From a virus (Duplodnaviria > Caudoviricetes): DNA of 28,443 nucleotides. The stretch spans positions 1-28,443 of the IMG/VR virus record IMGVR_UViG_3300005805_000350. The stretch is one strand, 5' to 3'. Position numbers and translations under genes: made by a program. Numbering within the stretch: the first letter of the stretch is position 1; the number at the start of each line of letters is the position of its first letter. This document shows, one piece after another, positions 1 through 10,139 of this stretch. The notes under the pieces were generated by a model, which worked only from the letters and a program-made list of their open reading frames with translations, did not search any database and had not been told where the DNA came from.

Positions 1-62
1 GGGTTACGATCCCCGACCTCAGCCTTGACAGGGCCGTGTTCAGACCACTAAACTATGGCGGC
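1..62 (-). tRNA. tRNA-Asp(GTC), 3' end cut by window edge
   Basis: Minus: GCCGCCA TA GTTT AGTGGTCT GAAC; anticodon arm CGGCC-CTGTCAA-GGCTG; T-loop ATCGTAA. Confidence 0.85.
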
Positions 63-98
63 AGAATAAGTGCTGATAGCCGCGGCTATCAGCGGGGG

Positions 99-153
99 TT
101 TCGGGCTTTACCAATAAGCTACGACATTCCGAATCGAACGGAATTCTCCGAAA
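99..153 (-). ncRNA. Minimal permuted tRNA-elbow mimic (T arm then D arm, no acceptor stem)
   Basis: TTTCGG-AGAA-TTCCG TTCGATT CGGAA-TGTCG-TA-GCTT ATTGGTA AAGC-CCGAAA. Confidence 0.6.
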
Positions 154-155
154 TA

Positions 156-236
156 TGGTGGACCTACAGGGAATTAAACCCATGGGCGACTTGGATATCA
201 TCATTTCGAATAAGTCGCTGTAGTCATCTTCGGCCC
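156..236 (-). ncRNA. tmRNA-TLD-like / D-stemless Ala-identity RNA ending in ACCA
   Basis: GGGCCGA...TAGGTCC ACCA with G3:U70; no D stem; stem GCGACTT/AAGTCGC; degenerate T arm GGG TTTAATT CCC. Confidence 0.5.
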
Positions 237-244
237 ATTGTTCT

Positions 245-329
245 TGGTGGTTGACCAGGGATTCGAACCCCGTATGCCGGAGGCCACGGTTTTACAGACC
301 GCTGAAGTCGCCAATGCTTCTCGTCAACC
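245..329 (-). tRNA. tRNA-Tyr(GTA)
   Basis: GCGGT-CTGTAAA-ACCGT, long variable arm, GGTTCGAATCC, ACCA. Confidence 0.95.
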
Positions 330-336
330 TTAATAT

Positions 337-432
337 CATAATGAAACATACTGCCCAATCAGTCACAAGTGTAAGTTGGTCCCTTGCGGGTGTCCTTGAA
401 TGGTGGGTGTCGAACCCACATGTTTCATTATG
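337..432 (-). ncRNA. Terminal-stem RNA family member A (contains a T arm)
   Basis: 13-bp inverted repeat CATAATGAAACAT (337-349 / 420-432) enclosing GTGGG TTCGACA CCCAC and CCC-GCAA-GGG. Confidence 0.55.
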
Positions 433-515
433 GTGCCTCAGAAGGGAGTCGAACCCTTACGCCTTGCGGCGCCGGATTTTGAGTCCGGTGCGTCTGCCAG
501 TTCCGCCACCGAGGC
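431..515 (-). tRNA. tRNA-Leu(CAA)
   Basis: CCGGA-CTCAAAA-TCCGG, long variable arm, ACCA. Confidence 0.95.
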
Positions 516-522
516 AATTGTT

Positions 523-562
523 TGGAGCGGGCGAAGAGGTTCAAACTCTCAACAAACTCCGC
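523..562 (-). pseudogene. Gly-type tRNA minihelix/remnant (acceptor + T arm only)
   Basis: GCGG...GAGAG TTTGAAC CTCTT CGCCCGC T CCA; no D or anticodon arm. Confidence 0.45.
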
Positions 563-576
563 TGTTTGATGCACAA

Positions 577-667
577 CCATATTGAAACACACTCTATGCC
601 TAACATTGGCAGCGGCAGATTGCGTACTAGCTGGGTTTCACACTGACAAGAATATGTTTCATTATAG
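577..667 (-). ncRNA. Terminal-stem RNA family member B
   Basis: Minus arms TATAATGAAACATATT ... AGTGTGTTTCAATATGG. Confidence 0.55.
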
Positions 668-744
668 CCATATTGGAGCATACTAGCGGGAACTACCCTC
701 AAGAAAGGCATCGTGACCCTTTCAGATAATATGCTCCAATATGG
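668..744 (-). ncRNA. Terminal-stem RNA family member C
   Basis: Perfect 15-bp inverted repeat CCATATTGGAGCATA (668-682 / 730-744). Confidence 0.6.
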
Positions 745-765
745 TGCGTGATATTGCTACCACGC
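742..765 (-). ncRNA. CCA-ended microhelix
   Basis: GCGTGGTA-GCAA-TATCACGC-ACCA. Confidence 0.5.
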
Positions 766-782
766 TACCATATGTCCTGTGC

Positions 783-793
783 TGTTAAAGAAC
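783..793 (-). promoter_or_regulatory. boxA antitermination element
   Basis: GTTCTTTAACA vs rrn boxA TGCTCTTTAACA; three identical copies in 783-1290. Confidence 0.55.
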
Positions 794-812
794 CAATTCA
801 GCTCACTTGATA

Positions 813-833
813 TGGCACCCACCTGCGTGGGCG
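813..833 (-). ncRNA. CCA-ended microhelix
   Basis: GCCCAC-GCAG-GTGGGT-GCCA. Confidence 0.4.
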
Positions 834-842
834 CACATATTG

Positions 843-1040
843 TTAGGCCAGCTGGTAAGTGACGCGGATCTTAGCGCCGTTCCCCAGCTTTAGCGTGACT
901 GCGCAGCTACCATCCTTGCGAACACTGCGACGCTGACTTACAATCTCAACAGCTTGGTTTCGCGCAACATTGGTCACAATGCGGCGGCTGCGAAGCTGTT
1001 TGCTCAGCAGTTCAACCAGGGTTTGATTGGATTTAGCCAT
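843..1040 (-). CDS. Small basic hypothetical protein (65 aa)
   Basis: ATG preceded by AGGAG SD; downstream of sigma70 promoter and boxA. Confidence 0.75.
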   Translation of the reverse strand: MAKSNQTLVELLSKQLRSRRIVTNVARNQAVEIVSQRRSVRKDGSCAVTLKLGNGAKIRVTYQLA

Positions 1041-1091
1041 GCTTATTTCTCCTAGTAATATGGCAACATTGCCATATCAAGTGAGCCAAAT

Positions 1092-1102
1092 TGTTAAAGA
1101 AC
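1092..1102 (-). promoter_or_regulatory. boxA antitermination element
   Basis: CGTTCTTTAACA about 20 nt downstream of a -10 box. Confidence 0.7.
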
Positions 1103-1122
1103 GTTTACTAACTTATGCAGCT

Positions 1123-1151
1123 ATTATACTGCCATTGTTAATTAAAGTCAA
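1123..1151 (-). promoter_or_regulatory. sigma70-type promoter
   Basis: TTGACT-17 nt-TATAAT. Confidence 0.8.
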
Positions 1152-1156
1152 CCAAT

Positions 1157-1272
1157 CGCCATTCAACTGCACACTCACAGGACTTGAACCTGCCAACCTC
1201 GCTCCATACGGGGCGAAGCTAGATCCCACCTCTATCAGCGTGGCCTACGCCTTTGTGTGCATGTGGATAGCG
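1157..1272 (-). ncRNA. tRNA-like structured RNA without D arm or CCA
   Basis: TGCACAC/GTGTGCA stem, two internal hairpins, T arm GCAGG TTCAAGT CCTGT; own promoter and boxA. Confidence 0.55.
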
Positions 1273-1279
1273 ACTGGTT

Positions 1280-1290
1280 TGTTAAAGAAC
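1280..1290 (-). promoter_or_regulatory. boxA antitermination element
   Basis: CGTTCTTTAACA downstream of promoter 1309-1337. Confidence 0.7.
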
Positions 1291-1308
1291 GTTAACTGCA
1301 ATATCGTT

Positions 1309-1337
1309 ATATTAACAAAGATTGGGTTAAAAGTCAA
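1309..1337 (-). promoter_or_regulatory. sigma70-type promoter
   Basis: TTGACT-17 nt-TAATAT. Confidence 0.65.
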
Positions 1338-1357
1338 CTTACTTTTAGCACTGTAAG

Positions 1358-2140
1358 TCATTGATTTGTATAGCTTTTTATTGCAGATTCTAGTGCTGTA
1401 CGTACATCACGCATACCATAATAGGCAGGAATTACACAGGTTGACCTTGCCGCTGCTGTGGCCTTTACAAATTCATCCTGTTCAAACCATTCAGCATTTT
1501 CAATGCCTAACAGTTTAGCTATCTCATAATTGTTTATACTGCCTTGATTTACTAGGTTATATGCAGCATTTTCAACCCCAGCCTCTAATAGCTCACAGGC
1601 TACTCTTATGGCCTCATCATGGTCAGTCAAACTATTTTCTCCGCTGTGCGCTAACTTGCCACCAGCAGCATAACGTTTTAGTTTAGTTAAGAGGTTTTTG
1701 TTTTCCTCTTTGGCAGTGAAAGGCATTCTAATTCTAAATACCACACTGCGATTTTTTAAATAGCTGTCGCTAAGTCCTTTGCTGATACTATAGGTACTAC
1801 CAAAAAAGTTTGGTTCAGCATCCTCACTATCTATCACACCTTGATATATACATCCACTGCTAAAATGGGCTAACCGTTGTTGTAATTTATTACAGGCTTC
1901 ATATAACAAAATTGGAAATACACTGTTACCCATCATAGTAACTTCTTTTTGTTGTTCACAGGCATCAACATTTGGTACACCCGTAACTCCAGCACAGTTT
2001 ACTACCCAATCGTAAGTATTGTTAGCTATAGCATCAAAAACTTGTTGATGGCTCACTAGCTCAACCGTATGGTTACGTTGTTGTAATTGTTGAAATACCT
2101 TTTTACCGGTCCATCCTCTACCCACCACTAGTAATTTCAT
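1358..2140 (-). CDS. NAD(P)-dependent epimerase/reductase, RmlD-like (NDP-rhamnose synthesis)
   Basis: N-terminal GRGWTG Rossmann motif, NCAGVTGVPNVDACE, SSGCIY, YSISK (YxxxK). Confidence 0.85.
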   Translation of the reverse strand: MKLLVVGRGWTGKKVFQQLQQRNHTVELVSHQQVFDAIANNTYDWVVNCAGVTGVPNVDACEQQKEVTMMGNSVFPILLYEACNKLQQRLAHFSSGCIYQGVIDSEDAEPNFFGSTYSISKGLSDSYLKNRSVVFRIRMPFTAKEENKNLLTKLKRYAAGGKLAHSGENSLTDHDEAIRVACELLEAGVENAAYNLVNQGSINNYEIAKLLGIENAEWFEQDEFVKATAAARSTCVIPAYYGMRDVRTALESAIKSYTNQ

Positions 2141-2192
2141 TGTTTATCCTCTATATGGATATTTAAAGACTAAGGTTCTTGTACAAAAATAA

Positions 2193-2270
2193 TGGTGCAG
2201 GAAGTCTGAATTGAACAGACATATCCGGCTCTTCAGACCGGCGCAATAGGACCACCTCTGCCATTCCTGC
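2193..2270 (-). tRNA. tRNA-Phe(GAA)
   Basis: CCGGT-CTGAAGA-GCCGG; GCAGGAA/TTCCTGC ACCA. Confidence 0.9.
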
Positions 2271-2275
2271 ATTGC

Positions 2276-2390
2276 AGGCTCGCTGTTTACGTGCTAACCG
2301 TTACACTAAGTCCAGCGACCAACCTGGGTGCGGAGTCGAACCGCTCTCTCTTTTTCACAGTAAGAATAATAAGATTGCTGAAACGAGCCT
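2276..2390 (-). ncRNA. YrlA-like circularly permuted tRNA mimic, CAGCAA family
   Basis: AGGCTCG/CGAGCCT terminal stem, TTTCAGCAA, T arm GCGG TTCGACT CCGC, closed acceptor CCAG..CTGG, D arm TAGTGTAACGGTTAGCAC. Confidence 0.7.
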
Positions 2391-2403
2391 AAAGGTCTAT
2401 ACT

Positions 2404-2477
2404 TGGAGCGGGATAGGAGAATCGAACTCCTTTGACTAGCTTGGAAGGCTAGGACACAACCAATATGCCAATCCCGC
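2404..2477 (-). tRNA. tRNA-Gly(TCC)
   Basis: CTAGC-CTTCCAA-GCTAG; U73 CCA. Confidence 0.95.
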
Positions 2478-2483
2478 ATTGTT

Positions 2484-2561
2484 TGGTCCGAGTGGCAGGA
2501 TTCGAACCTGCGGCCTCCTGCTCCCAAAGCAGGCCGTCTAGCCAGACTGACATACACTCGG
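2484..2561 (-). tRNA. tRNA-Pro(TGG)
   Basis: CCTGC-TTTGGGA-GCAGG; C1:G72, ACCA. Confidence 0.95.
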
Positions 2562-2597
2562 ATAATACTATTTACACACTAACAATCAATGTGTAAA

Positions 2598-2626
2598 ATT
2601 ATAATGTCTCTGCATTATAATGTCAA
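2598..2626 (-). promoter_or_regulatory. sigma70 promoter (perfect consensus)
   Basis: TTGACA-17 nt-TATAAT. Confidence 0.85.
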
Positions 2627-2642
2627 CACTTTTTGAATAAAC

Positions 2643-2757
2643 AGGATGCATTCTCTTTGGGCGGCTGTCCTACCATTAGACTAAAGTCCTTGCGGACCTG
2701 TGGGAATCGAACCCACACTCGCTGCTTTTGGCAAGAAATATTTGCTGTAAGCATCCT
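2643..2757 (-). ncRNA. YrlA-like circularly permuted tRNA mimic, CAGCAA family
   Basis: AGGATGC/GCATCCT stem, TTACAGCAA, GTGGG TTCGATT CCCAC, AGGTCC-GCAA-GGACTT, TA GTCT AATGGTA GGAC. Confidence 0.8.
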
Positions 2758-2762
2758 AAAAC

Positions 2763-2835
2763 TGGTTGCGGTCGCCGGAGATGATCACGGTCCTTTAGGT
2801 TATGAGCCTAACGTGCGCCACTACACTACCCCGCA
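2763..2835 (-). tRNA. tRNA-Met(CAT), fMet-like, atypical or possibly degenerate
   Basis: TTAGG-CTCATAA-CCTAA; end CCGCAACCA; T-loop ATCATCT; mismatches in acceptor and T stems. Confidence 0.7.
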
Positions 2836-2844
2836 TTTGAAACT

Positions 2845-2920
2845 TGGTGGAGGATAACGGGATCGAACCGTTGACCTATAGCTTGCAAAGCTACCGCTCT
2901 CCCAGCTGAGCTAATCCCCC
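2845..2920 (-). tRNA. tRNA-Ala(TGC)
   Basis: GGGGGAT/ATCCTCC with G3:U70; loop TTTGCAA. Confidence 0.97.
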
Positions 2921-2928
2921 AAATCTTT

Positions 2929-3003
2929 TGGTGCCACGTGTCTGGATCGAACAGACGACCTATCGCTTACAAGGCGATTGCACTACCACTGTGCTAACAT
3001 GGC
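2929..3003 (-). tRNA. tRNA-Thr(TGT)
   Basis: ATCGC-CTTGTAA-GCGAT; ACCA. Confidence 0.95.
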
Positions 3004-3124
3004 ATATCCTTTACAGCGAGGGCAATTTCCGGAAAACTGCGCGGCTCACTGTTTCGTCCTCTAAAATATAACAAGGAGTTTACAACAATGTCAGGGGAGG
3101 ACTCTTCAGAAGGTACCCTGCATC
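3004..3124 (-). ncRNA. Type I hammerhead ribozyme
   Basis: CCTT-CTGAAGA-GTCCTC..GAGGAC-GAAA-CAGTGAG..CTCGCTG-TA-AAGG; complete catalytic core, GUA cleavage triplet at 3014-3012. Confidence 0.85.
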
Positions 3125-3133
3125 ACGTTTACT

Positions 3134-3162
3134 ACTATATAGTATTCCTTATTTCATGTCAA
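3134..3162 (-). promoter_or_regulatory. sigma70-type promoter
   Basis: TTGACA-17 nt-TATAGT, just upstream of the hammerhead. Confidence 0.75.
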
Positions 3163-3582
3163 CTATTTTTCATAACTCCAACCTAACTGTTGCATCAATT
3201 TCTTTTTAACACGTAAGTTAGGATTACGGAAGATACCAGGATCATCAAACCCTAACATTACAGCCACTTCAGTTACTGCACCGCTGCGACAGATGCCCGC
3301 TGTGCAATGTACCACAACATTCATTTGGTTGTGTTTTGCATGTTGCAGTAACTTCACTAACTCTGCGGCTTGTTGTTCAGTGATGCCATGTTCCTCAGCA
3401 CCCTCGTCCTTATCTTCAATATCAAGAAATTGAAAACGATGCACTTCGCAAAACTCTCTTTGAGTTTCAGGCCACCAGGGGCTCACCGTATCCGCTATTT
3501 GAATCAGCATGCTGTTAGCACCAGGATCTGGAAAATTGTTCTGTGCGACATCTATGGCCGCTACGTTTCTAATCCACATCAT
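3163..3582 (-). CDS. Cys-based (PTP/dual-specificity-like) phosphatase
   Basis: HCTAGICRS = HCx5R catalytic loop. Confidence 0.8.
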   Translation of the reverse strand: MMWIRNVAAIDVAQNNFPDPGANSMLIQIADTVSPWWPETQREFCEVHRFQFLDIEDKDEGAEEHGITEQQAAELVKLLQHAKHNQMNVVVHCTAGICRSGAVTEVAVMLGFDDPGIFRNPNLRVKKKLMQQLGWSYEK

Positions 3583-3591
3583 AGTTCCTTT

Positions 3592-3777
3592 TTATGTAAT
3601 ACTCTTTTTTATAACCCAACGAAATTCTAAATCGTAGGTTCTAAACGGCAATGCAATACGGCCTTCGCGTATAGCTCGGTGAAGCAGTTCATGCCTGCCC
3701 GCAGTGTTAGTAATTCCAATTAGTTCACCTCTGTAAATTACTTCACAGTCATATTTGTCTAACGGGCTATCACTCAT
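3592..3777 (-). CDS. Small hypothetical protein
   Basis: AGGAG SD; fills the gap between tRNA-Cys and the phosphatase. Confidence 0.7.
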   Translation of the reverse strand: MSDSPLDKYDCEVIYRGELIGITNTAGRHELLHRAIREGRIALPFRTYDLEFRWVIKKSIT

Positions 3778-3794
3778 ATTGCACTCCTTAAATT

Positions 3795-3880
3795 TGGAGG
3801 ATCAGGTAGGATTCTAACCTACGTGGGTATTAACCGTCCGCTTTGCAGGCGGATGCATTCGCACACTCTGCCACTGATCC
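3795..3880 (-). tRNA. tRNA-Cys(GCA) with long variable arm
   Basis: TCCGC-CTGCAAA-GCGGA; variable arm GGT-TAAT-ACC; U73; T-loop TTAGAAT. Confidence 0.85.
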
Positions 3881-3886
3881 AATGTT

Positions 3887-3978
3887 TGGCGGAGAGTATA
3901 GGATTCGAACCTATGCACCGGGTTTCCCCGGTGGACGGTTTAGCAAACCGCTGCCTTCAGCCACTCGGCCAACTCTCC
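3887..3978 (-). tRNA. tRNA-Ser(GCT)
   Basis: GCGGT-TTGCTAA-ACCGT; long variable arm; G73. Confidence 0.95.
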
Positions 3979-3985
3979 ATGTTCT

Positions 3986-4059
3986 TGGCTCCGGTGGACA
4001 GAATCGAACTGCCATCAAAAGTTTTGGAGACTTCTGTCTTACCATTAGACTACACCGGA
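3986..4059 (-). tRNA. tRNA-Trp(CCA)
   Basis: GAAGT-CTCCAAA-ACTTT; G73. Confidence 0.93.
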
Positions 4060-4670
4060 ATTATTTTTTTTACGCCACCTAAAACCCATCCTTGTGTTAA
4101 TAAATTTTGTATATCTTCAGGATGCGCCCATTTAGCCGTGATACCATTATTGATTAGTTTTTTATTTTTTTGTGTCAAAGATAGTTTTTGTTTTTGTTCA
4201 GCTGAAATAGTTTTTCCTAAATTGATCTGTCTGACATGTTTTTTGAATGTCTCTGGATCTTTTTTGGCCCAATTATTCGACGCTAATTTTTTCCTTGTTT
4301 CTTCGGTTGTCACCTGCTTCAATGCAGACTGACGTATCTTTTCTTTGGTTTCTTCAGAATGCTTTCTACCAGCAAATGCACCTATAATACCAGGATTTCC
4401 ACCAGATCCGCCAGGCTTTATATTATATGTATTTGCTGTTGTTATAAAATCTTCAGTAACTATCTCTGCTTCTTTAGCAAACATGTCTTTTTTATTAGTA
4501 AAGACAAATAGAATTTCTTTCTTGAAATTCTCAATTCCGTATTTTACTATAGCTCTTTTAAGATATTTTCCCGATCCCATGTAACCATCATTTATGTCTT
4601 TGGTTGCATGAGCACCTATATAAACTTTATTATCTAATAAATTTGTTATTTTGTAAATAAGATAGAACAT
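4050..4670 (-). CDS. GIY-YIG homing endonuclease (Seg-like) with NUMOD3 motifs
   Basis: [45 protein letters not shown]; stop codon lies within the tRNA-Trp 5' end. Confidence 0.9.
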
Positions 4671-4695
4671 ACTACCTCCTATACTTATTTATGCA

Positions 4696-4729
4696 AGACC
4701 GGTGCACCACCATTTATGCGTCTGGGCCT
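4696..4729 (-). pseudogene. Orphan 5' half of a tRNA (Trp-like)
   Basis: AGGCCCAGACGCATAAATGGTGGTGCACCGGTCT; GCACCGGTCT resembles the D/anticodon junction of enterobacterial tRNA-Trp as recalled. Confidence 0.45.
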
Positions 4730-4760
4730 TTATGTTTCTATTATACAGATTAGCGTATTT

Positions 4761-5087
4761 TTAGTCTACACTCATTTCACCAAAATCACGCACTACACCA
4801 GGAGCATCCCAGTATATGCAACACATTCTATTGGTGACCCATTGGTTAACCTTTTTATGTGCGCAGAAAAATGCGGTTTTAGCTGTGCCTTTGCCAGGCA
4901 ATGTTACCAAGTCGCTGATCTTGGCATTTTTGAGATCTTTCTTATCTTTAATCTTTAACCCACCGTTACTGTTTAATTCGCCGGGTTCTACTGCTCTAAC
5001 ATCAGCACCCTTTTTCCAACTACAGTTACCGCAGTTGGTTCCTACTACTTTGGGTGCTGCTTCATTAATAATTTGTATTATACGCAT
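4761..5087 (-). CDS. Cys-rich hypothetical protein, putative virion-internal
   Basis: MRIIQIINE N-terminus; CGNC..C..CC; TATAAATA at 5093-5100. Confidence 0.7.
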   Translation of the reverse strand: MRIIQIINEAAPKVVGTNCGNCSWKKGADVRAVEPGELNSNGGLKIKDKKDLKNAKISDLVTLPGKGTAKTAFFCAHKKVNQWVTNRMCCIYWDAPGVVRDFGEMSVD

Positions 5088-5092
5088 AACAT

Positions 5093-5100
5093 TATTTATA
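5093..5100 (-). promoter_or_regulatory. T4-type late promoter TATAAATA
   Basis: Exact match; NATAAATA variants also at 4686, 9257, 9838, 15176, 28408. Confidence 0.65.
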
Positions 5101-5110
5101 CAAATTAATT

Positions 5111-5189
5111 TGGCGACACGTATGGGATTCTAACCCATGATCTCCGCCGTGACAGGGCGGCGCATTAAGACAGGCTATGCTAACGTGCC
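5111..5189 (-). tRNA. tRNA-Asp(GTC)
   Basis: CCGCC-CTGTCAC-GGCGG; G73; T-loop TTAGAAT. Confidence 0.92.
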
Positions 5190-5196
5190 ATTGTTT

Positions 5197-5275
5197 TGGC
5201 TCCGCATCTGGGAATCGAACCCAGCTAGTCATTGATTAACAGTCAAGTCCGTGCACCATGCTCGGATTCTGCGGA
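5197..5275 (-). tRNA. tRNA-Asn(GTT)
   Basis: TTGA-CTGTTAA-TCAA; TCCGCA/TGCGGA G CCA. Confidence 0.88.
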
Positions 5276-5283
5276 ATTGTCTT

Positions 5284-5357
5284 TGGTGCTCCCAGCCGGT
5301 AACGATCCGACGTCTCAGCTTTACCAAAGCCGTGTAATACCTTTATACTATGGGAGC
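5284..5357 (-). tRNA. tRNA-Thr(GGT)
   Basis: CGGCT-TTGGTAA-AGCTG; T-loop ATCGTTA. Confidence 0.88.
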
Positions 5358-5369
5358 GAAATTAAATTA

Positions 5370-6077
5370 TTAACCAACCCAACGAGCATAAAGCCCGTTG
5401 TCGGTACCACCCTCTTCAGGATGTTTGGCACTGTAAATTTGTATGCCTTGAATTAAAGATTTTAATTCTTGGCTCTTACCAGCACCTGATACTGGAACAC
5501 TTATCGTAATCCTACCACCTTTACGACCCAACACTTCTGCATCACCCTTCTTCAACAGCCGTATTAATCTTGCTGCATCAGGGTCATCAACATCAGGGTA
5601 TGCTTGCCAATCTGAACTGTATATTGATACATATCCTGATACTTCTACGCCGGGAATCCGATGTAAATTGGTCCACAAGCGTATAGCTTCTGGTGTTTGC
5701 GATTCATCTGCTACCACTGTAAGACCTAAAATCTTTGTGGCAATAATATATAACAATTGACCCAGACCCTGTCCACGATAGTTACTATCCAATACTACAT
5801 TGGCCACCATCACTGCTCTGGGCAATGGAAATGGGGTAGGACGCACAGCTAGATAACCCACTGCTTGAATTTTTTGCGGATTCTTAATATCAAACAGGTA
5901 TATAGCTTTGGATGATCCAGTAAATGGTGATTGATAGGAACTAAACGTGTATCCATACTGTTTATTACCAGGAACAGGTTTAATAGTTTTACGTTCAGCG
6001 GCACTGATCTTCTCTTGAGAGAAGTCTACAGATCCTTTATCACCGCGTTGACGCTGTATTTCAGATATTCGCATCAA
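5370..6077 (-). CDS. GNAT-fold acetyltransferase-like protein
   Basis: VVLDSNYRGQGLGQLLY acetyl-CoA binding motif A; AIRLW motif-B-like segment. Confidence 0.65.
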   Translation of the reverse strand: MMRISEIQRQRGDKGSVDFSQEKISAAERKTIKPVPGNKQYGYTFSSYQSPFTGSSKAIYLFDIKNPQKIQAVGYLAVRPTPFPLPRAVMVANVVLDSNYRGQGLGQLLYIIATKILGLTVVADESQTPEAIRLWTNLHRIPGVEVSGYVSIYSSDWQAYPDVDDPDAARLIRLLKKGDAEVLGRKGGRITISVPVSGAGKSQELKSLIQGIQIYSAKHPEEGGTDNGLYARWVG

Positions 6078-6101
6078 GTATTTATTTTACTTTAATACTT
6101 T

Positions 6102-6192
6102 TGGCGGAGAATAAAGGAATCGAACCCTCAGCCCTACTAAGGTGCTGGCCGGGTTTTCGAGACCCGTTGCCCACCATTGGGCGCTATTCTCC
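6102..6192 (-). tRNA. tRNA-Ser(CGA)
   Basis: CGGGT-CTCGAAA-ACCCG; long variable arm; G73. Confidence 0.92.
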
Positions 6193-6202
6193 CTAAATTA
6201 AA

Positions 6203-6304
6203 TAGGTTCGCTTGTTCCTTGCGGAAAAGATGATCAGTCTCTGCCTCGGCTACTCTAACTTCGTAGGTCAAAGCTACCCTTGCTGTCAACGGCACTTGCG
6301 AATT
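6203..6304 (-). ncRNA. Structured RNA with ACAGCAA motif and Arg-like anticodon hairpin
   Basis: TTCGC/GCGAA ends, GACAGCAA, GCTTTGAC-CTACGAA-GTTAGAGT, TTCC-GCAA-GGAA. Confidence 0.5.
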
Positions 6305-6307
6305 CTG

Positions 6308-6399
6308 TGGCGGAAGGTAAAGGATTTGAACCTTTGTGCACTTTTCAGCGCCCACTGACTTCCAATCAGGGCCAATAGACCAAACTCTGGCAACCTTCC
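6308..6399 (-). tRNA. tRNA-Ser(GGA)
   Basis: CTGA-TTGGAAG-TCAG; long variable arm; G73. Confidence 0.9.
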
Positions 6400-6403
6400 A
6401 AAT

Positions 6404-6440
6404 TGGTTGGATCTGTGGATTATAGTGACATACAGACCCA
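6404..6440 (-). ncRNA. CCA-ended hairpin (microhelix)
   Basis: TGGGTCTGT..ACAGATCCA-ACCA. Confidence 0.45.
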
Positions 6441-6456
6441 TGCTGCCACTGCGCAC

Positions 6457-6546
6457 TGGCGGAAGCGGTGAGATTTGAACTCACGAAACCTTTCGGTTTG
6501 CTAGTTTTCAAGACTAGTGCAATCAGCCGGACTCTGCCACGCTTCC
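6457..6546 (-). tRNA. tRNA-Ser(TGA)
   Basis: CTAGT-CTTGAAA-ACTAG; G73. Confidence 0.95.
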
Positions 6547-6552
6547 AAATTT

Positions 6553-7335
6553 TTACACTTGTTTGGTGGTAGCAAATATATCATGACCAACCACCATATA
6601 ACTATATCCTAACTTCTTTAAAACTTCTATTAACTTTGCTCTACCTTGATCACTGGTGTCCTGTCTTTGACTATCACCGAGATTTAAATACTCTACATAC
6701 AAGTCAGGCTTAAACTTTTCTATGGTCTGAGCTGCACCATTTATTACATCTAAATCTAATCCTTCAGCATCAATTTTAATATAATCAACTTTTGGTACTC
6801 TATGTTCCAACACAAATCTATCAATGGTTGTCATTTTGATACGCTGCATAGCACCGGCTACGGATTTGTATGTATCACTGAGATCAGCACCACCTAACGT
6901 AAATGCAGCAAAACTACCAGGTTGATCATAATCTACTTCAGGTATTTCAATCCATTTTTCTTCTCTGCCTATTGCAGTTTCATATGCATAGACATTAAAA
7001 ATATTGTTGATAGCAAGATTGCCACATAATATTTGAAATACCTGTCGTTGTGGTTCAAAACAATAAAGTTTACCACCTCTTTTAGCTAACCAAGGTGCGA
7101 TAAATGTAGCAAATGTGCCAATGTTAGCACCAATATCAATCACCACAGGATCAACGGTATTAATCAAAGCTTTACTAGCTATATCAGTTTCAACGGTGTT
7201 GTTATTGCCGTGGTCTAACAAAAATCTCCCTACGCCAACACCATCTGGTCCACTATCATTTCTGTTTAAAATCATAGTGCCGTGATCACAGCTGACTAAT
7301 ATATTGCGAATAGGTTTGTCATCTAAAGTAAACAT
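6553..7335 (-). CDS. FkbM-family methyltransferase (start revised to ATG 7335)
   Basis: VIDIGANIG, FEPQ, YIKIDAEG; the longer ORF start overlaps a tRNA. Confidence 0.9.
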   Translation of the reverse strand: MFTLDDKPIRNILVSCDHGTMILNRNDSGPDGVGVGRFLLDHGNNNTVETDIASKALINTVDPVVIDIGANIGTFATFIAPWLAKRGGKLYCFEPQRQVFQILCGNLAINNIFNVYAYETAIGREEKWIEIPEVDYDQPGSFAAFTLGGADLSDTYKSVAGAMQRIKMTTIDRFVLEHRVPKVDYIKIDAEGLDLDVINGAAQTIEKFKPDLYVEYLNLGDSQRQDTSDQGRAKLIEVLKKLGYSYMVVGHDIFATTKQV

Positions 7336-7386
7336 ATTAGTAATTAGTCCTAAGCTTGACCACAACACAAAATGTGACACATTATT

Positions 7387-7462
7387 TGGTAGTCCCGGAA
7401 GGATTCTAACCCTCAACGTTCCGCTAATCGGGCGGACATTCTAACAATTGAATTACAGGACC
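7387..7462 (-). tRNA. tRNA-Ile(GAT)-like with aberrant anticodon loop
   Basis: Full cloverleaf; TCCGC-CCGATTA-GCGGA (C33, U37); T-loop TTAGAAT; ACCA. Confidence 0.7.
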
Positions 7463-7471
7463 ATTGTTTTT

Positions 7472-7546
7472 TGGCAGGAGATGTAGGAATCGAACCTACG
7501 AACCTGGTTTCAAAGACCAGTATGTCTACCACTCCATCAATCTTCA
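7472..7546 (-). tRNA. tRNA-Gln(TTG)
   Basis: CTGGT-CTTTGAA-ACCAG; unpaired 1:72, G73. Confidence 0.88.
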
Positions 7547-7555
7547 ACTGATAAA

Positions 7556-7636
7556 CCATAATGGAACATACTCCACACTCTTATACGCCCGCGCTTTGTA
7601 AGCCGTTAAAATATAAGCGAATATATTCTAGTATGG
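7556..7636 (-). ncRNA. Terminal-stem RNA family member D
   Basis: Minus arms CCATACTAGAATATATT ... AGTATGTTCCATTATGG; starts at the tRNA-Glu CCA. Confidence 0.55.
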
Positions 7637-7709
7637 CGTCCTGTGGGGGAATCGAACCCGCCCTCTGTGGCTTGAAGGGCCACGGATCTCACCAGAAATC
7701 CAACAGGAC
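7634..7709 (-). tRNA. tRNA-Glu(TTC) with C33
   Basis: GTGGC-CCTTCAA-GCCAC; GTCCTGT/ACAGGAC G CCA. Confidence 0.88.
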
Positions 7710-7724
7710 AAAAACTGCTGGCTG

Positions 7725-8294
7725 TTACACCAGCAGCTTCTTAACGCGACTATGCTTAGGCAAGAAATCCTTAAGGAACATCATTTGATCTGCCAAAATA
7801 TTTCTATTTTGTAAAACCAATGCTTCAGCCTTGTCTGGAACATAAGGAACATACAACAATTCTAAACCAGCTTCCTTAAGTGTCATGTCATCTTTGTGAG
7901 AATTGCATGGCGTGCATGCAGTTACACAATTTGTCCACGACGTTGGACCACCCTTGCTAGCAGGAACAATATGATCCCTAGTCAATTGATGATCTTTAAA
8001 TTCTTTGCCACAGTATGCACAAATATGCAGATCTCGCCTAAACAAGTTTCGGTTGTTCAGCGTAGGCGTCCGATTCACATATTTGAATTTGGAATTTAGA
8101 GCTACAATGCTGGCAACTTCAACTTGAGAGCGCTGACCTGTCATGCGTGAAGTGCCACCCTTAAACATAAATTCCTCATCGCCAAATTCCCAGCCAATGA
8201 GACCTTTGCATTTTAGAGTAACCGCATCCTGCCAGGTGATCCAATTGTGCGGCTGACCACCACTGTTTAATGCCAGTATCAAGTTACGCATCAT
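7725..8294 (-). CDS. McrA-like HNH endonuclease
   Basis: RDLHICAYCG, LTRDHIVPASKGG, WTNCVTACTPCNSHK; GGAG SD before ATG 8294. Confidence 0.88.
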   Translation of the reverse strand: MMRNLILALNSGGQPHNWITWQDAVTLKCKGLIGWEFGDEEFMFKGGTSRMTGQRSQVEVASIVALNSKFKYVNRTPTLNNRNLFRRDLHICAYCGKEFKDHQLTRDHIVPASKGGPTSWTNCVTACTPCNSHKDDMTLKEAGLELLYVPYVPDKAEALVLQNRNILADQMMFLKDFLPKHSRVKKLLV

Positions 8295-8342
8295 GCTCTC
8301 CAATTAAAAATTTTACTTTTAGATATTTACTACAAATAAAAC

Positions 8343-8436
8343 TGGTACTCCCGGAAGGAATCGAACCTTCACCATGCCCTCATCTAGAGCTAAACCGGAA
8401 TATAAAGCCGGCGTTCTACCATTAAACTACGGGAGC
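8343..8436 (-). tRNA. tRNA with TAT anticodon (Ile-UAU) and long variable arm
   Basis: CCGGC-TTTATAT-TCCGG; variable arm GCTCT-AGATG-AGGGC; A73 CCA; 94 nt. Confidence 0.8.
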
Positions 8437-8447
8437 ATAAAATAAAC

Positions 8448-8503
8448 AGGATGGACTTTTTCACTTTTTGACAGTAAGTTTTTTAATTTGCTGTAACCAT
8501 CCT
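8448..8503 (-). ncRNA. Short CAGCAA-family RNA with Asp-like anticodon hairpin
   Basis: AGGATGG/CCATCCT stem, TTACAGCAA, ACTT-A-CTGTCAA-A-AAGT. Confidence 0.65.
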
Positions 8504-8511
8504 CAAAACTT

Positions 8512-8590
8512 TGGGGTGATAGACCAGACTCGCACTGGCTAATATACTGTTTCACGGACAGTAGGCTCGACTACTTCGCTTTCTATCACC
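8512..8590 (-). tRNA. tRNA-His(GTG) with C33
   Basis: G-1:C73 eight-bp acceptor; ACTGT-CCGTGAA-ACAGT; T-loop TGCGAGT. Confidence 0.88.
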
Positions 8591-8599
8591 ATTGTATCT

Positions 8600-8677
8600 T
8601 GGTCTCCCATGCTGAGTTCGAACCAGCGTTATTCCTGATCCCAAATCAGGTACCATACCAGGCTAGGCGAATGGGAG
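8600..8677 (-). tRNA. tRNA-Pro(TGG), second copy
   Basis: CCTGA-TTTGGGA-TCAGG; C1:G72 ACCA. Confidence 0.92.
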
Positions 8678-8692
8678 ATAGTTCTTAAAATT

Positions 8693-8776
8693 TGGTGCCC
8701 CAGGGGAGACTCGAACTCCCACGCCTCTCGGCAACGGCTTCTAAGACCGTCATGGCTACCATTACATCACCGGGGC
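8693..8776 (-). tRNA. tRNA-Leu(TAG)
   Basis: ACGGT-CTTAGAA-GCCGT; long variable arm. Confidence 0.95.
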
Positions 8777-8782
8777 AAATAT

Positions 8783-8856
8783 TGGAGCGGGTAGCCGGTT
8801 ACGCTCCGGCGATTTCACTTTGGCAAAGTGATAGGTTACTATTACATCATACCCGC
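8783..8856 (-). tRNA. tRNA-Gly(GCC), divergent elbow
   Basis: TCACT-TTGCCAA-AGTGA; U73; T-loop AGCGTAA; D-loop AATAGTA. Confidence 0.85.
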
Positions 8857-8861
8857 GTATA

Positions 8862-9251
8862 TTATCTTAACGAAAGACCTCTCGCCTTTCGACCGTTACC
8901 CTTATTACCACCGCCATAACTTTTAGTTTGGCTATGACAATTAGGACATATTAATCTTAAATTGCTTGGCATATTATTGCCAGCATTTCCGTCTATGTGA
9001 TCTACTTGAAGTACAATAGGTTTATTATTGTATTCGCTTATTCCGCAACATTCACAATTATAACCATTTACTTCAGTTAATACTTTACGCAAAGTGTTTC
9101 TTTCGGTTACTTCACCAAGTTTAAATCTTTCAATTGTTCCTTTAAATTGTGCTTTACCCTGACAAGAGTTGCTACAGTATATATTAAACTTTTGACGTGA
9201 CCACTTAGACTCAGTTCCGCAATTTTTACAGATATAGGTAGAATGTTTCAT
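8862..9251 (-). CDS. HNH homing endonuclease with N-terminal Zn ribbon (start ATG 9251)
   Basis: CKNCG..YCSNSC; CECCG..LQVDHIDGN..NLRLICPNCHSQT; GATAAATA just upstream. Confidence 0.88.
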   Translation of the reverse strand: MKHSTYICKNCGTESKWSRQKFNIYCSNSCQGKAQFKGTIERFKLGEVTERNTLRKVLTEVNGYNCECCGISEYNNKPIVLQVDHIDGNAGNNMPSNLRLICPNCHSQTKSYGGGNKGNGRKARGLSLR

Positions 9252-9279
9252 ACATTTATTTATCATTCTACCGCACAAA

Positions 9280-9302
9280 TCTACCAACTGAGCTACACCC
9301 GC
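9280..9302 (-). pseudogene. Orphan canonical 5' fragment of tRNA-Gly
   Basis: GCGGGTGTAGCTCAGTTGGTAGA, then abrupt loss of tRNA similarity. Confidence 0.75.
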
Positions 9303-9335
9303 ATATAACTATTTAACACCCTCTTTGGAAGGTGT

Positions 9336-9406
9336 ATAATAAAGTGTACCACCTTCTAATCCGCACCATTACAGGTTATCCAAACCAGTATGATACACTT
9401 TATTAT
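9336..9406 (-). ncRNA. Terminal-stem RNA, divergent member E
   Basis: Perfect 13-bp inverted repeat ATAATAAAGTGTA (9336-9348 / 9394-9406). Confidence 0.45.
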
Positions 9407-9524
9407 CTGCCATTTATACTCCGCCGTTATCGCCAGCGTTTCATCCGGTCAGCCGCCCGTTTGCAGGATGTTTATAGTGCCCTGCGAGACCTCGTTTCTC
9501 ACCACACTTTCTCTTTCTTACACT

Positions 9525-9553
9525 ATCCTAACAAAGTTTTTAATTTTTGTCAA
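9525..9553 (-). promoter_or_regulatory. sigma70-type promoter just downstream of the attenuator terminator
   Basis: TTGACA-17 nt-TAGGAT. Confidence 0.6.
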
Positions 9554-9557
9554 CTAC

Positions 9558-9592
9558 AAAAACAAAAACCCCAGGGTGTTTAATCCTGGGGT
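9558..9592 (-). terminator. Intrinsic terminator of putative attenuator
   Basis: ACCCCAGG-ATTAAACAC-CCTGGGGT followed by TTTTGTTTTT. Confidence 0.85.
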
Positions 9593-9616
9593 CCTTTTGA
9601 GTTTGTGGAATTTTAT

Positions 9617-9763
9617 TTAACTATTCCGCCCTTCTCCCAAGGACCCCTTGCTAGGCTCTACTGCACGATCATTACTGCCACTGATAATGGTCCAATATGA
9701 TGGCATAAAGCCTATCTGTTTGGCCCCACATGTCAGTTTATGTAACGAAGTTCTTTGCATCAT
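9617..9763 (-). CDS. Putative attenuator leader peptide (48 aa) containing all 20 amino acids
   Basis: MMQRTSLHKLTCGAKQIGFMPSYWTIISGSNDRAVEPSKGSLGEGRNS; AGGA before ATG; GGGGTCCTT in the ORF complements the terminator 5' arm. Confidence 0.75.
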   Translation of the reverse strand: MMQRTSLHKLTCGAKQIGFMPSYWTIISGSNDRAVEPSKGSLGEGRNS

Positions 9764-9770
9764 GTTTCCT

Positions 9771-9799
9771 ATTATATTGTATCTAGTCTTTATTGTCAA
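9771..9799 (-). promoter_or_regulatory. sigma70 promoter (perfect consensus) for the leader ORF
   Basis: TTGACA-17 nt-TATAAT; ATG lies 7 nt after the -10 box. Confidence 0.85.
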
Positions 9800-9858
9800 C
9801 AACAAAAATAACTTTTGACAAAATTTCCTTATAAATTTATTTATGCCTTCTAAAACAA

Positions 9859-10047
9859 TTACTTATCTTTAGGCTGCATTTTTGCTATAATCTTATTTAT
9901 AATACTACTACCAGTATTTGTCAATAAAATTGGTAAAATTGCATGAATCAATAAAACAAAACCTGCAAGTAAACATAAACCTGCCATTGTTGCAGCATGC
10001 TTGGCATGCTGTGTATATGTCATGTTTACTTGTTTTAAATGATCCAT
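9859..10047 (-). CDS. Small membrane protein (DUF6356-like)
   Basis: HLKQVNMTYTQH..hydrophobic stretch..HAILP pattern. Confidence 0.6.
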   Translation of the reverse strand: MDHLKQVNMTYTQHAKHAATMAGLCLLAGFVLLIHAILPILLTNTGSSIINKIIAKMQPKDK

Positions 10048-10062
10048 ACACTATTTATTCTT

Positions 10063-10139
10063 TGGTGGGCCCACTAGGATTTGAACCTAGGACCAAGCGA
10101 TTATGAGTCGCCTGCTCTGACCAACTGAGCTATAGGCCC
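10063..10139 (-). tRNA. tRNA-Ile2(CAT), lysidine type
   Basis: GGGCCTATAGCTCAG..GGCGACTCATAATCGCTTGGTC resembles bacterial Ile2 rather than Met. Confidence 0.8.

Follow-up and report, generated by a model that had tools for sequence, protein, structure and literature searches.

Why would a phage exchange, in matched pairs, the tRNA bases that textbooks treat as invariant? The question is raised by a cluster of transfer RNA (tRNA) genes in the record IMGVR_UViG_3300005805_000350 of IMG/VR, positions 1 to 28,443, the whole of which (28,443 nucleotides) is called the window below. In several of these genes the elbow contacts G18:U55, G19:C56 or U54:A58 carry other bases on both sides. A sequence-only reading had named eight such genes and explained them by selection on fold with an altered surface, such as escape from elbow-reading nucleases, homing endonucleases or integrases, rather than by decay. 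We find that the rewiring of elbows is genuine and compensated, and that many phages but few bacteria have it.

Rewired tRNA genes of the window

Genes were parsed with our own cloverleaf parser, which scores the stems and positions 8, 14, 15, 21, 32, 33 and 37, leaves the letters of the T-loop unscored and reads positions 18-19 off the D-loop alone. It finds 24 CCA-ending tRNA genes in the window, whereas five shuffled versions gave 0. All eight genes of the earlier reading are present on the minus strand, at the positions it had given:

3795..3880, minus strand: tRNA-Cys(GCA) with long variable arm, U19:A56; ARAGORN, Rfam and parser; the Rfam alignment leaves its D-loop register ambiguous
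5111..5189, minus strand: tRNA-Asp(GUC), U19:A56; ARAGORN, parser and Rfam alignment; canonical and rewired homologues exist
7387..7462, minus strand: tRNA-Ile(GAU)-like, U19:A56, with C33 and U37 in the anticodon loop; Rfam and parser; missed by default ARAGORN
5284..5357, minus strand: tRNA-Thr(GGU), A54:U58, A60; ARAGORN, parser and Rfam alignment
8783..8856, minus strand: tRNA-Gly(GCC), A54:U58 and A18:G55; Rfam and parser; stepwise homologues
8512..8590, minus strand: tRNA-His(GUG), G-1, A18:G55, C33, irregular D-arm; parser only, missed by Rfam model RF00005
1..62, minus strand: second tRNA-Asp(GUC), A54:U58, 3' end lost at the contig end
2763..2835, minus strand: tRNA-Met(CAU), initiator-like, letters A54/U58, mismatched T- and acceptor stems; probably decaying

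The first six are the clean cases: 6 of the 24 intact tRNA genes of the window lack U54-U55-C56. Among phage tRNAs next to canonical anchors the proportion is 43/386 (11%), so the rewired share of the window is modestly above the phage base rate (P=0.044). In Cys, Asp (5111) and Ile the U19:A56 exchange goes with a UUAGAAU T-loop and a GU D-loop without GG in all three, just as had been read. The A18:G55 exchange likewise holds in Gly and His, in the latter by parser only. The A54:U58 exchange, claimed for four genes, is found in Thr and Gly and fits the cut-off Asp at position 1, but Met 2763 is degenerate.

Formal alignment to RF00005 might have renumbered these pairs away. It retains the T-loop numbering of Cys, Asp, Ile, Thr and Gly at full posterior, and the GU of Asp and Ile and the AG of Gly fall on the consensus G18G19. 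The D-loop of Cys is ambiguous, since the alignment prefers U18-G19 with the register shifted by one base; the assignment of G18-U19 there rests on homologues sharing the D-loop layout. All clean cases but one, five of six, score above the gathering threshold of RF00005, and Cys, Asp, Ile, Thr and Gly show a 7-bp acceptor stem, 5-bp anticodon and T stems and a 3' CCA. The RF00005 invariants G18, G19, U54, U55, C56 and A58 are not conserved in the rewired genes but replaced as matched pairs.

The tRNA-His of positions 8512-8590 forms a cloverleaf by the parser only; default ARAGORN misses it, RF00005 misses it even at E<=10, and its D-stem pairing is poor. Default ARAGORN passes over Ile and Gly as well, and real phage tRNAs thus escape gene finders. 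Met 2763-2835 gives no clean cloverleaf match and is missed by default ARAGORN and at Rfam gathering; because of this and its mismatched stems it is weak evidence.

The anticodons of the six clean genes all begin with G34 (6/11 against 0/13, p=0.003, a post hoc comparison). The corresponding effect in the wider set of neighbor tRNAs introduced below is weak (61/350 against 91/738, odds ratio 1.5, p=0.025).

Covariation among phage tRNAs

Covariation across phage tRNAs had been proposed as a check of the exchanges, and the partners do covary. We scanned IMG/VR with patterns in which one partner was fixed and the other was read, and the counts from these scans hold among the matches listed. The sets include related genes and are not independent; CAU tRNAs make up 21/66 of the A56 set and 65/103 of the G55 set. 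With A56 fixed, 74 of 120 listed loci parse as tRNAs, 66 of them distinct and with 20 anticodons; the D-loop has GU without GG in 61/66 and keeps GG in 5. In the opposite direction, with G18-U19 fixed, 60 of 121 listed loci parse (57 distinct). When 17 with a true GG elsewhere in the D-loop are left out, A56 is present in 34 of the remaining 40. Fixing A54 gives 102 parsed loci of 122 listed (96 distinct), with U58 in 72 and A58 in 24, and fixing G55 gives 103 of 126, with A18 in 98/103.

A second set comprises 1088 neighbor tRNAs that were not chosen by their elbow, 152 without UUC and 936 with it. Here A19 accompanies U56 in 20/21 and C19 accompanies G56 in 5/6 (U55 loops). The 54:58 pair is U:A in 1004, A:U in 48, G:G in 18, A:A in 9, C:A in 7 and other in 2. 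The UUC loops have A58 in 935/936 and a purine at position 57 in 936/936, and the stems of rewired neighbors pair as well as those of canonical ones. The counts from both sets bear out matched or complementary bases at 19:56, 18:55 and 54:58, the geometry of which we infer.

Homologues that are nearly identical and differ in the elbow point in the same direction. The tRNA-Asp of a UvsX relative has G19:C56 on a body otherwise similar to the window Asp. For Gly there is a stepwise series: the gene of L731 is canonical, that of L332 has A54:U58, and that of the window has the double exchange. Genes sharing the anticodon arm of the window Gly parse at 22 of 119 loci; because 9 of the 10 distinct ones are canonical, the window form is probably derived. 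Homologues of His from two other lake runs show 7-14 differences, both sides of pair 52:62 among them; the 20 differences listed include none at 54-56. In named phages, Asp has partial matches only and Gly none.

By these covariation counts, chance is excluded as the source of the exchanges. Decay, in which the genes would be pseudogenes with chance mutations, could appeal to the broken stems of Met 2763, the poor D-stem of His and C33/U37 of Ile. But hundreds of genes carry paired changes, with the partner matched in 75-95%, the stems are intact and His homologues are conserved; decay is left a negligible probability, and for the class it is refuted. It may hold for Met 2763 alone, the one of the eight that looks decayed. 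Covariation, intact stems and the near-identical canonical and rewired homologue pairs together make selection on fold very probable, and this part of the earlier interpretation stands.

Probable function of rewired tRNAs

RNase P, the L1 stalk and T-boxes read the elbow by stacking on the flat 19:56 pair (PMC4810234, PMC3664808), which would fit a tolerance of any Watson-Crick pair there. The tRNA-Ile(GAU) of phage T5 has A19:U56, and according to a GenBank note it acts as an amber suppressor once its anticodon is changed (the anticodon is printed CAU, which we take as a slip). The rewired tRNAs of the window are likely still functional. The A54:U58 pair is probably no simple flip of the reverse-Hoogsteen pair. 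Position 60 shifts along with it (A60 in 37/48), which suggests a refolded loop in these tRNAs.

Distribution

Overall, textbook-invariant elbow bases are replaced by rule in about one phage tRNA of nine, and the rewired tRNAs are a natural map of the pairs that preserve the L shape. The genes are unevenly distributed. An 83-kb phage record (G001) has 23 of 24 tRNAs rewired, with about ten T-loop types, and other phage records have 9/19, 7/18, 2/25 (G004) and 1/36 (L050). In the pooled set 81 of 595 tRNAs are rewired, in 39 clusters, and 0 of 5000 permutations are as uneven.

Bacteria present a different picture. The phylum of G010, scanned in 121 genomes, yielded a single tRNA-like match with a base other than C at position 56, and it is compensated (C19:G56). 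A changed base 54 matched 78 times in the same genomes; on inspection by eye none of these resembles a tRNA, and the reversed control had similar counts. Both are bare match counts. In GTDB, 22 of 120 A56 matches are tRNAs and 16 of these have U19; the U19:A56 cases are stand-alone Arg genes (Acidobacteriota and clostridial records included) and phage-like arrays. Because of the Arg cases and the single match in the 121 genomes, the exchange is tolerated in cells yet mainly a phage trait. Stand-alone tRNA-Arg genes (CCU, CCG) with U19:A56 were seen in L611, L634, L637, L649, L586, L619 and others, and one such gene is an integration site.

The 23/24 array of the 83-kb record (G001:C1:62700-75500; L002, L1035) holds two PD-(D/E)XK (PF11645) endonucleases within the cluster. 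A phage-encoded nuclease distinguishing self from non-self was considered there and dropped: a Pfam scan of 58 open reading frames gave these two endonucleases, an HNH and RNA ligases, none of them decisive, in a record about 75% complete.

Possible escape from T-loop nucleases

What could select for such exchanges? The three kinds strike positions 54, 55 and 56, one each, and the shared loss of all rewired genes is U54-U55-C56. Cash, a type III CRISPR-associated Schlafen, attacks most host tRNAs; in Escherichia coli it cut 28 of them, chiefly in the T-loop, at a UUC motif and 5' of U55, and changing either U54 or U55 singly is enough to abolish this (PMC13462974). A bacterial competition toxin also cuts within the T-loop (PMC9086364). 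Cas12a3 is described as contacting the T-arm backbone only (PMC12851939). Because each exchange removes one base of the Cash motif, we tentatively favor, at just short of an even chance, the hypothesis that the exchanges were selected as escape from T-loop nucleases such as Cash. In 6 of 24 window genes the change falls on the known cleavage motif of a defense nuclease.

Presumed escape would proceed as follows. The phage tRNAs would be expressed and L-shaped, with a flat 19:56 platform for RNase P and the ribosomal L1 stalk, and would be charged by host synthetases. When host tRNAs are cut, the rewired ones would survive and translation would continue. Changes in the D-loop and at 58/60 would be compensation for the T-loop change. 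We regard Cash as the best model of the opponent, not as the identified opponent. Clustering of rewiring by genome counts for nuclease escape, and so does its rarity in bacteria. It is noteworthy, since Cash also reads anticodon U-turns, that the rewired Ile and His have C33 in place of U33 and that non-U33 is threefold commoner in rewired tRNAs (12/152 against 26/936).

Several observations weigh against nuclease escape. Firstly, protection would be no more than partial, since UUC is retained in 18 of the 24 tRNAs of the window. Secondly, C56 mutants are absent from the Cash text and from six supplement files (PMC13462974), and dependence of Cash on C56 is not reported; resistance by U19:A56 is therefore the weakest link. 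Thirdly, among neighbors, variation confined to the D-loop with UUC retained (14 of 18 listed) is commoner than variation confined to the T-loop (3), which is the opposite of a path that starts in the T-loop. Further, clustering by genome lacks significance when the canonical-anchored sample is taken by itself (22 clusters, p=0.09). In the 23/24 phage one change dominates (20/24 at position 55), and its total is about what independent per-position rates would give. Finally, deviations from U8, A14, R15 and Y48 are 2-3 times commoner in rewired tRNAs, although this is perhaps partly a parsing artefact.

Some of these points favor relaxed constraint with compensation, which the earlier interpretation overlooked and which explains part of the data. 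Host tRNAs would back up phage tRNAs, single elbow mutants would persist until a partner change, and fold alone would be selected. We consider this a serious alternative, though rather unlikely as the main cause. It is favored by the excess of D-loop-only variants, by the three quarters of window tRNAs that keep UUC, and by core deviations in rewired against canonical neighbors (non-U8 34/152 against 79/936, non-A14 32 against 91, non-R15 39 against 87). Uncompensated intermediates (5/66, 5/103 and 6/40 in the scans), the occurrence of all four Watson-Crick pairs at 19:56, and turnover and decay in the cluster (Met 2763, Gln 7472, fragments) fit it as well. However, rewired genes show no relaxation at G53:C61, Y32 or R37, position 57 is a purine throughout the UUC loops, and U19:A56 is a weaker pair in place of G:C, yet is kept across 20 anticodons. 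Strong clustering by genome in the pooled set also speaks against relaxation, and so do large, almost wholly canonical sets such as those of L050 and G004, with presumably equal redundancy.

Phage tRNAs might also gain by evading the T-loop modifications of the host (m5U54, pseudouridine 55, m1A58) or by not depending on them, with alternative pairs that are stable unmodified when modification becomes limiting during infection. Changes at 54, 55 and 58 do remove the modified bases (PMC7912444), but the 19:56 exchanges, half of the six clean cases, and the weaker U:A pair are unexplained, and we regard this cause as very improbable.

If nuclease escape is true, it answers the question, which the authors of the Cash study left open, of the fate of phage tRNAs under Cash (PMC13462974), and tRNA-based immune evasion reaches beyond the anticodon arm to the elbow. 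Somewhat further short of an even chance is a broader conjecture: that the rewired elbow is a second, isotype-independent tRNA counter-defense against T-loop nucleases, that some phages carry a nearly whole nuclease-proof parallel translation kit, and that it follows an unrecognized elbow-pair code of any Watson-Crick pair at 19:56, G:U or A:G at 18:55, and U:A, A:U, G:G or A:A at 54:58. Such tRNAs would serve as scaffolds for orthogonal translation.

Possible selection at the level of DNA

The T-loop can also be a target as DNA. T4 SegB recognizes GGTTCRANTCC at tRNA 3' ends (PMC2330249), a motif supported in PMC13096335. On this view the T-loop consensus would expose tRNA genes of every isotype to SegB-type homing endonucleases, and rewiring would confer immunity to the enzyme of the same or a co-infecting phage. 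Two endonuclease genes of the cluster matter here:

4050..4670, minus strand: GIY-YIG free-standing endonuclease, T4 SegB homologue, within the tRNA cluster; 38% identity, 216 aa, E 6e-37
8862..9287, minus strand: HNH endonuclease, flanked by a canonical 5' tRNA-Gly fragment (9280-9302) and by the rewired Gly

The SegB precedent and a full-length homologue within the cluster thus speak for the homing endonucleases of the earlier reading, and every exchange breaks the SegB consensus. Loss of the consensus does not follow presence of the enzyme, however. Variant tRNAs occur at 17/129 in clusters with GIY-YIG genes and at 61/431 in those without (p=0.89), although 3 of the 8 GIY-YIG clusters came from the SegB-homologue query itself. 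Of 80 loci with SegB homologues 20 hold tRNAs, of which only 5/65 distinct ones are variant. In the window 10/24 genes retain the full consensus. Among neighbors, a cheap alteration of G52 is seen less often, not more often, with rewiring (G52 retained in 127/152 against 611/936). Escape from the enzyme of a rival phage needs no local gene and may occur, but as a whole we consider this driver improbable.

The SegB homologue and the HNH gene each lie directly behind a 5' tRNA fragment on the minus strand (an Ala-UGC half at 4692-4728 and a Gly D-arm at 9280-9302), followed by ATAAATA, a late-promoter-like word. The same layout of fragment and endonuclease is found in L690 (2430-2470), before an intact Ala. 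The arrangement suggests that endonuclease genes have inserted into tRNA genes. Close SegB homologues are located just upstream of tRNA-Trp(CCA) in L949, L950, L952 and L959 and in the window (3986-4670); Trp or a neighbor may mark the target of the SegB homologue. A cassette of HNH gene and immune tRNA was considered and abandoned, as the one good homologue of the HNH gene at 8862-9287 (L690, 54%) precedes a canonical tRNA-Ala. Contigs from other samples that align to the window do not join across this gene, which is uninformative.

tRNA genes are frequent integration targets, with 3' ends that integrases use as attachment sites, and escape from integrases was among the drivers proposed earlier. 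In G006, however, the 3' half of a U19:A56 tRNA-Arg(CCU) is repeated 11.5 kb away beside a tyrosine integrase; this rewired gene serves as an attachment site, so the exchange does not block integration. Besides, attachment sites are isotype-specific and stem changes would presumably suffice. The integrase proposal is largely contradicted by this example, and we give it hardly any credence.

Avoidance of restriction sites was also tried. TCGA is depleted outside the cluster (10.2-28.4 kb; 18 observed against 40 expected), yet this leaves the exchanges unexplained and was rejected, because a free G57 to A57 change already removes TCGA and A56 genes keep GAATC.

The phage and other features of the cluster

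The window is a 28.4-kb fragment of a PA5oct-like jumbo myophage, with genes for terminase, UvsX, UvsY, single-strand binding protein, head closure and tail tube. Its terminase shares 56% identity with that of Pseudomonas phage PA5oct and 51-52% with those of Atu_ph07 and Phosso. Lake and freshwater metagenomes are the best sources of matching sequence. None of the 22 runs with matches to the window is listed as RNA, which tells nothing either way on expression. Bases 1-10139 form the minus-strand tRNA cluster, interspersed with short genes and with one GIY-YIG and two HNH endonuclease genes; its canonical part served as internal control:

245..10139, minus strand: remainder of the tRNA cluster, 18 parsed genes with U54-U55-C56 kept; parser

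Among other tRNA genes, one with a UAU anticodon and a 24-nt variable arm lies at 8343-8436, with a similar gene in the relative L390, and tRNA-Gln(UUG) at 7472-7546 combines a canonical elbow with an acceptor stem that has two mismatches. At approximately 158-240 and 523-570 the minus strand carries two unusual elements that end in CCA and have U56 T-loops; one has an oversized anticodon arm and one is a Gly-like remnant without D and anticodon arms. Up to four tRNA look-alikes in reversed order are present on the minus strand (2636-2761, 2281-2391, 338-432 and about 66-170). They consist of a T-arm, then a hairpin, then in most a D-arm, with a canonical UUC T-loop in all. One scores 27.8 bits to YrlA, under the gathering threshold, and the first two are adjacent on a contig from another sample. 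These look-alikes may represent Y-RNA-like RNAs, or they may act as decoys that occupy T-loop nucleases.

Comparison with known systems

In the open-access literature we found no description of elbow covariation in phage tRNAs, U19-A56 included; subscription journals and older T5 papers lay outside the search. Among the features looked for, the consulted part of a T-loop review mentions the eukaryotic A54-A58 as the sole case (PMC7912444). With the canonical tRNA of RF00005 the rewired genes share the cloverleaf, stem lengths, 7-nt T-loop, G53:C61, purine 57 and encoded CCA. Unlike it, they carry other matched bases at one or two elbow contacts, and A60 often accompanies the 54:58 exchange. 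Eukaryotic initiator tRNA and tRNA-Ala are working natural tRNAs with an altered 54-58 pair (PMC7912444), but theirs is A54-A58, not A54:U58, and has no 18:55 or 19:56 exchange.

T4 SegB resembles the homologue in the window cluster and has T-stem-loop DNA as its target consensus (PMC2330249), but such genes show no statistical link with rewiring here. Cash, which comes from a Chloroflexi bacterium and was studied in E. coli (PMC13462974), is a candidate opponent, not the element itself; its cut motif, UUC at 54-56, is what every exchange in the window removes.

A further likeness is to nuclease-resistant phage tRNAs (van den Berg 2023, PMC10264068; the rescue tRNAs of PARIS, retron-Eco7 and P2-OLD), in which a site cut by host defense is altered, as may be the case here by analogy. 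Resistance to OLD maps to the anticodon arm (PMC12445682), and the consulted text of the main paper on phage tRNA escape mentions neither T-loop, D-loop nor elbow (PMC10264068). Those tRNAs carry isotype-specific changes of the anticodon arm, whereas rewiring concerns the universal elbow and, across phages, extends over at least 20 anticodons.

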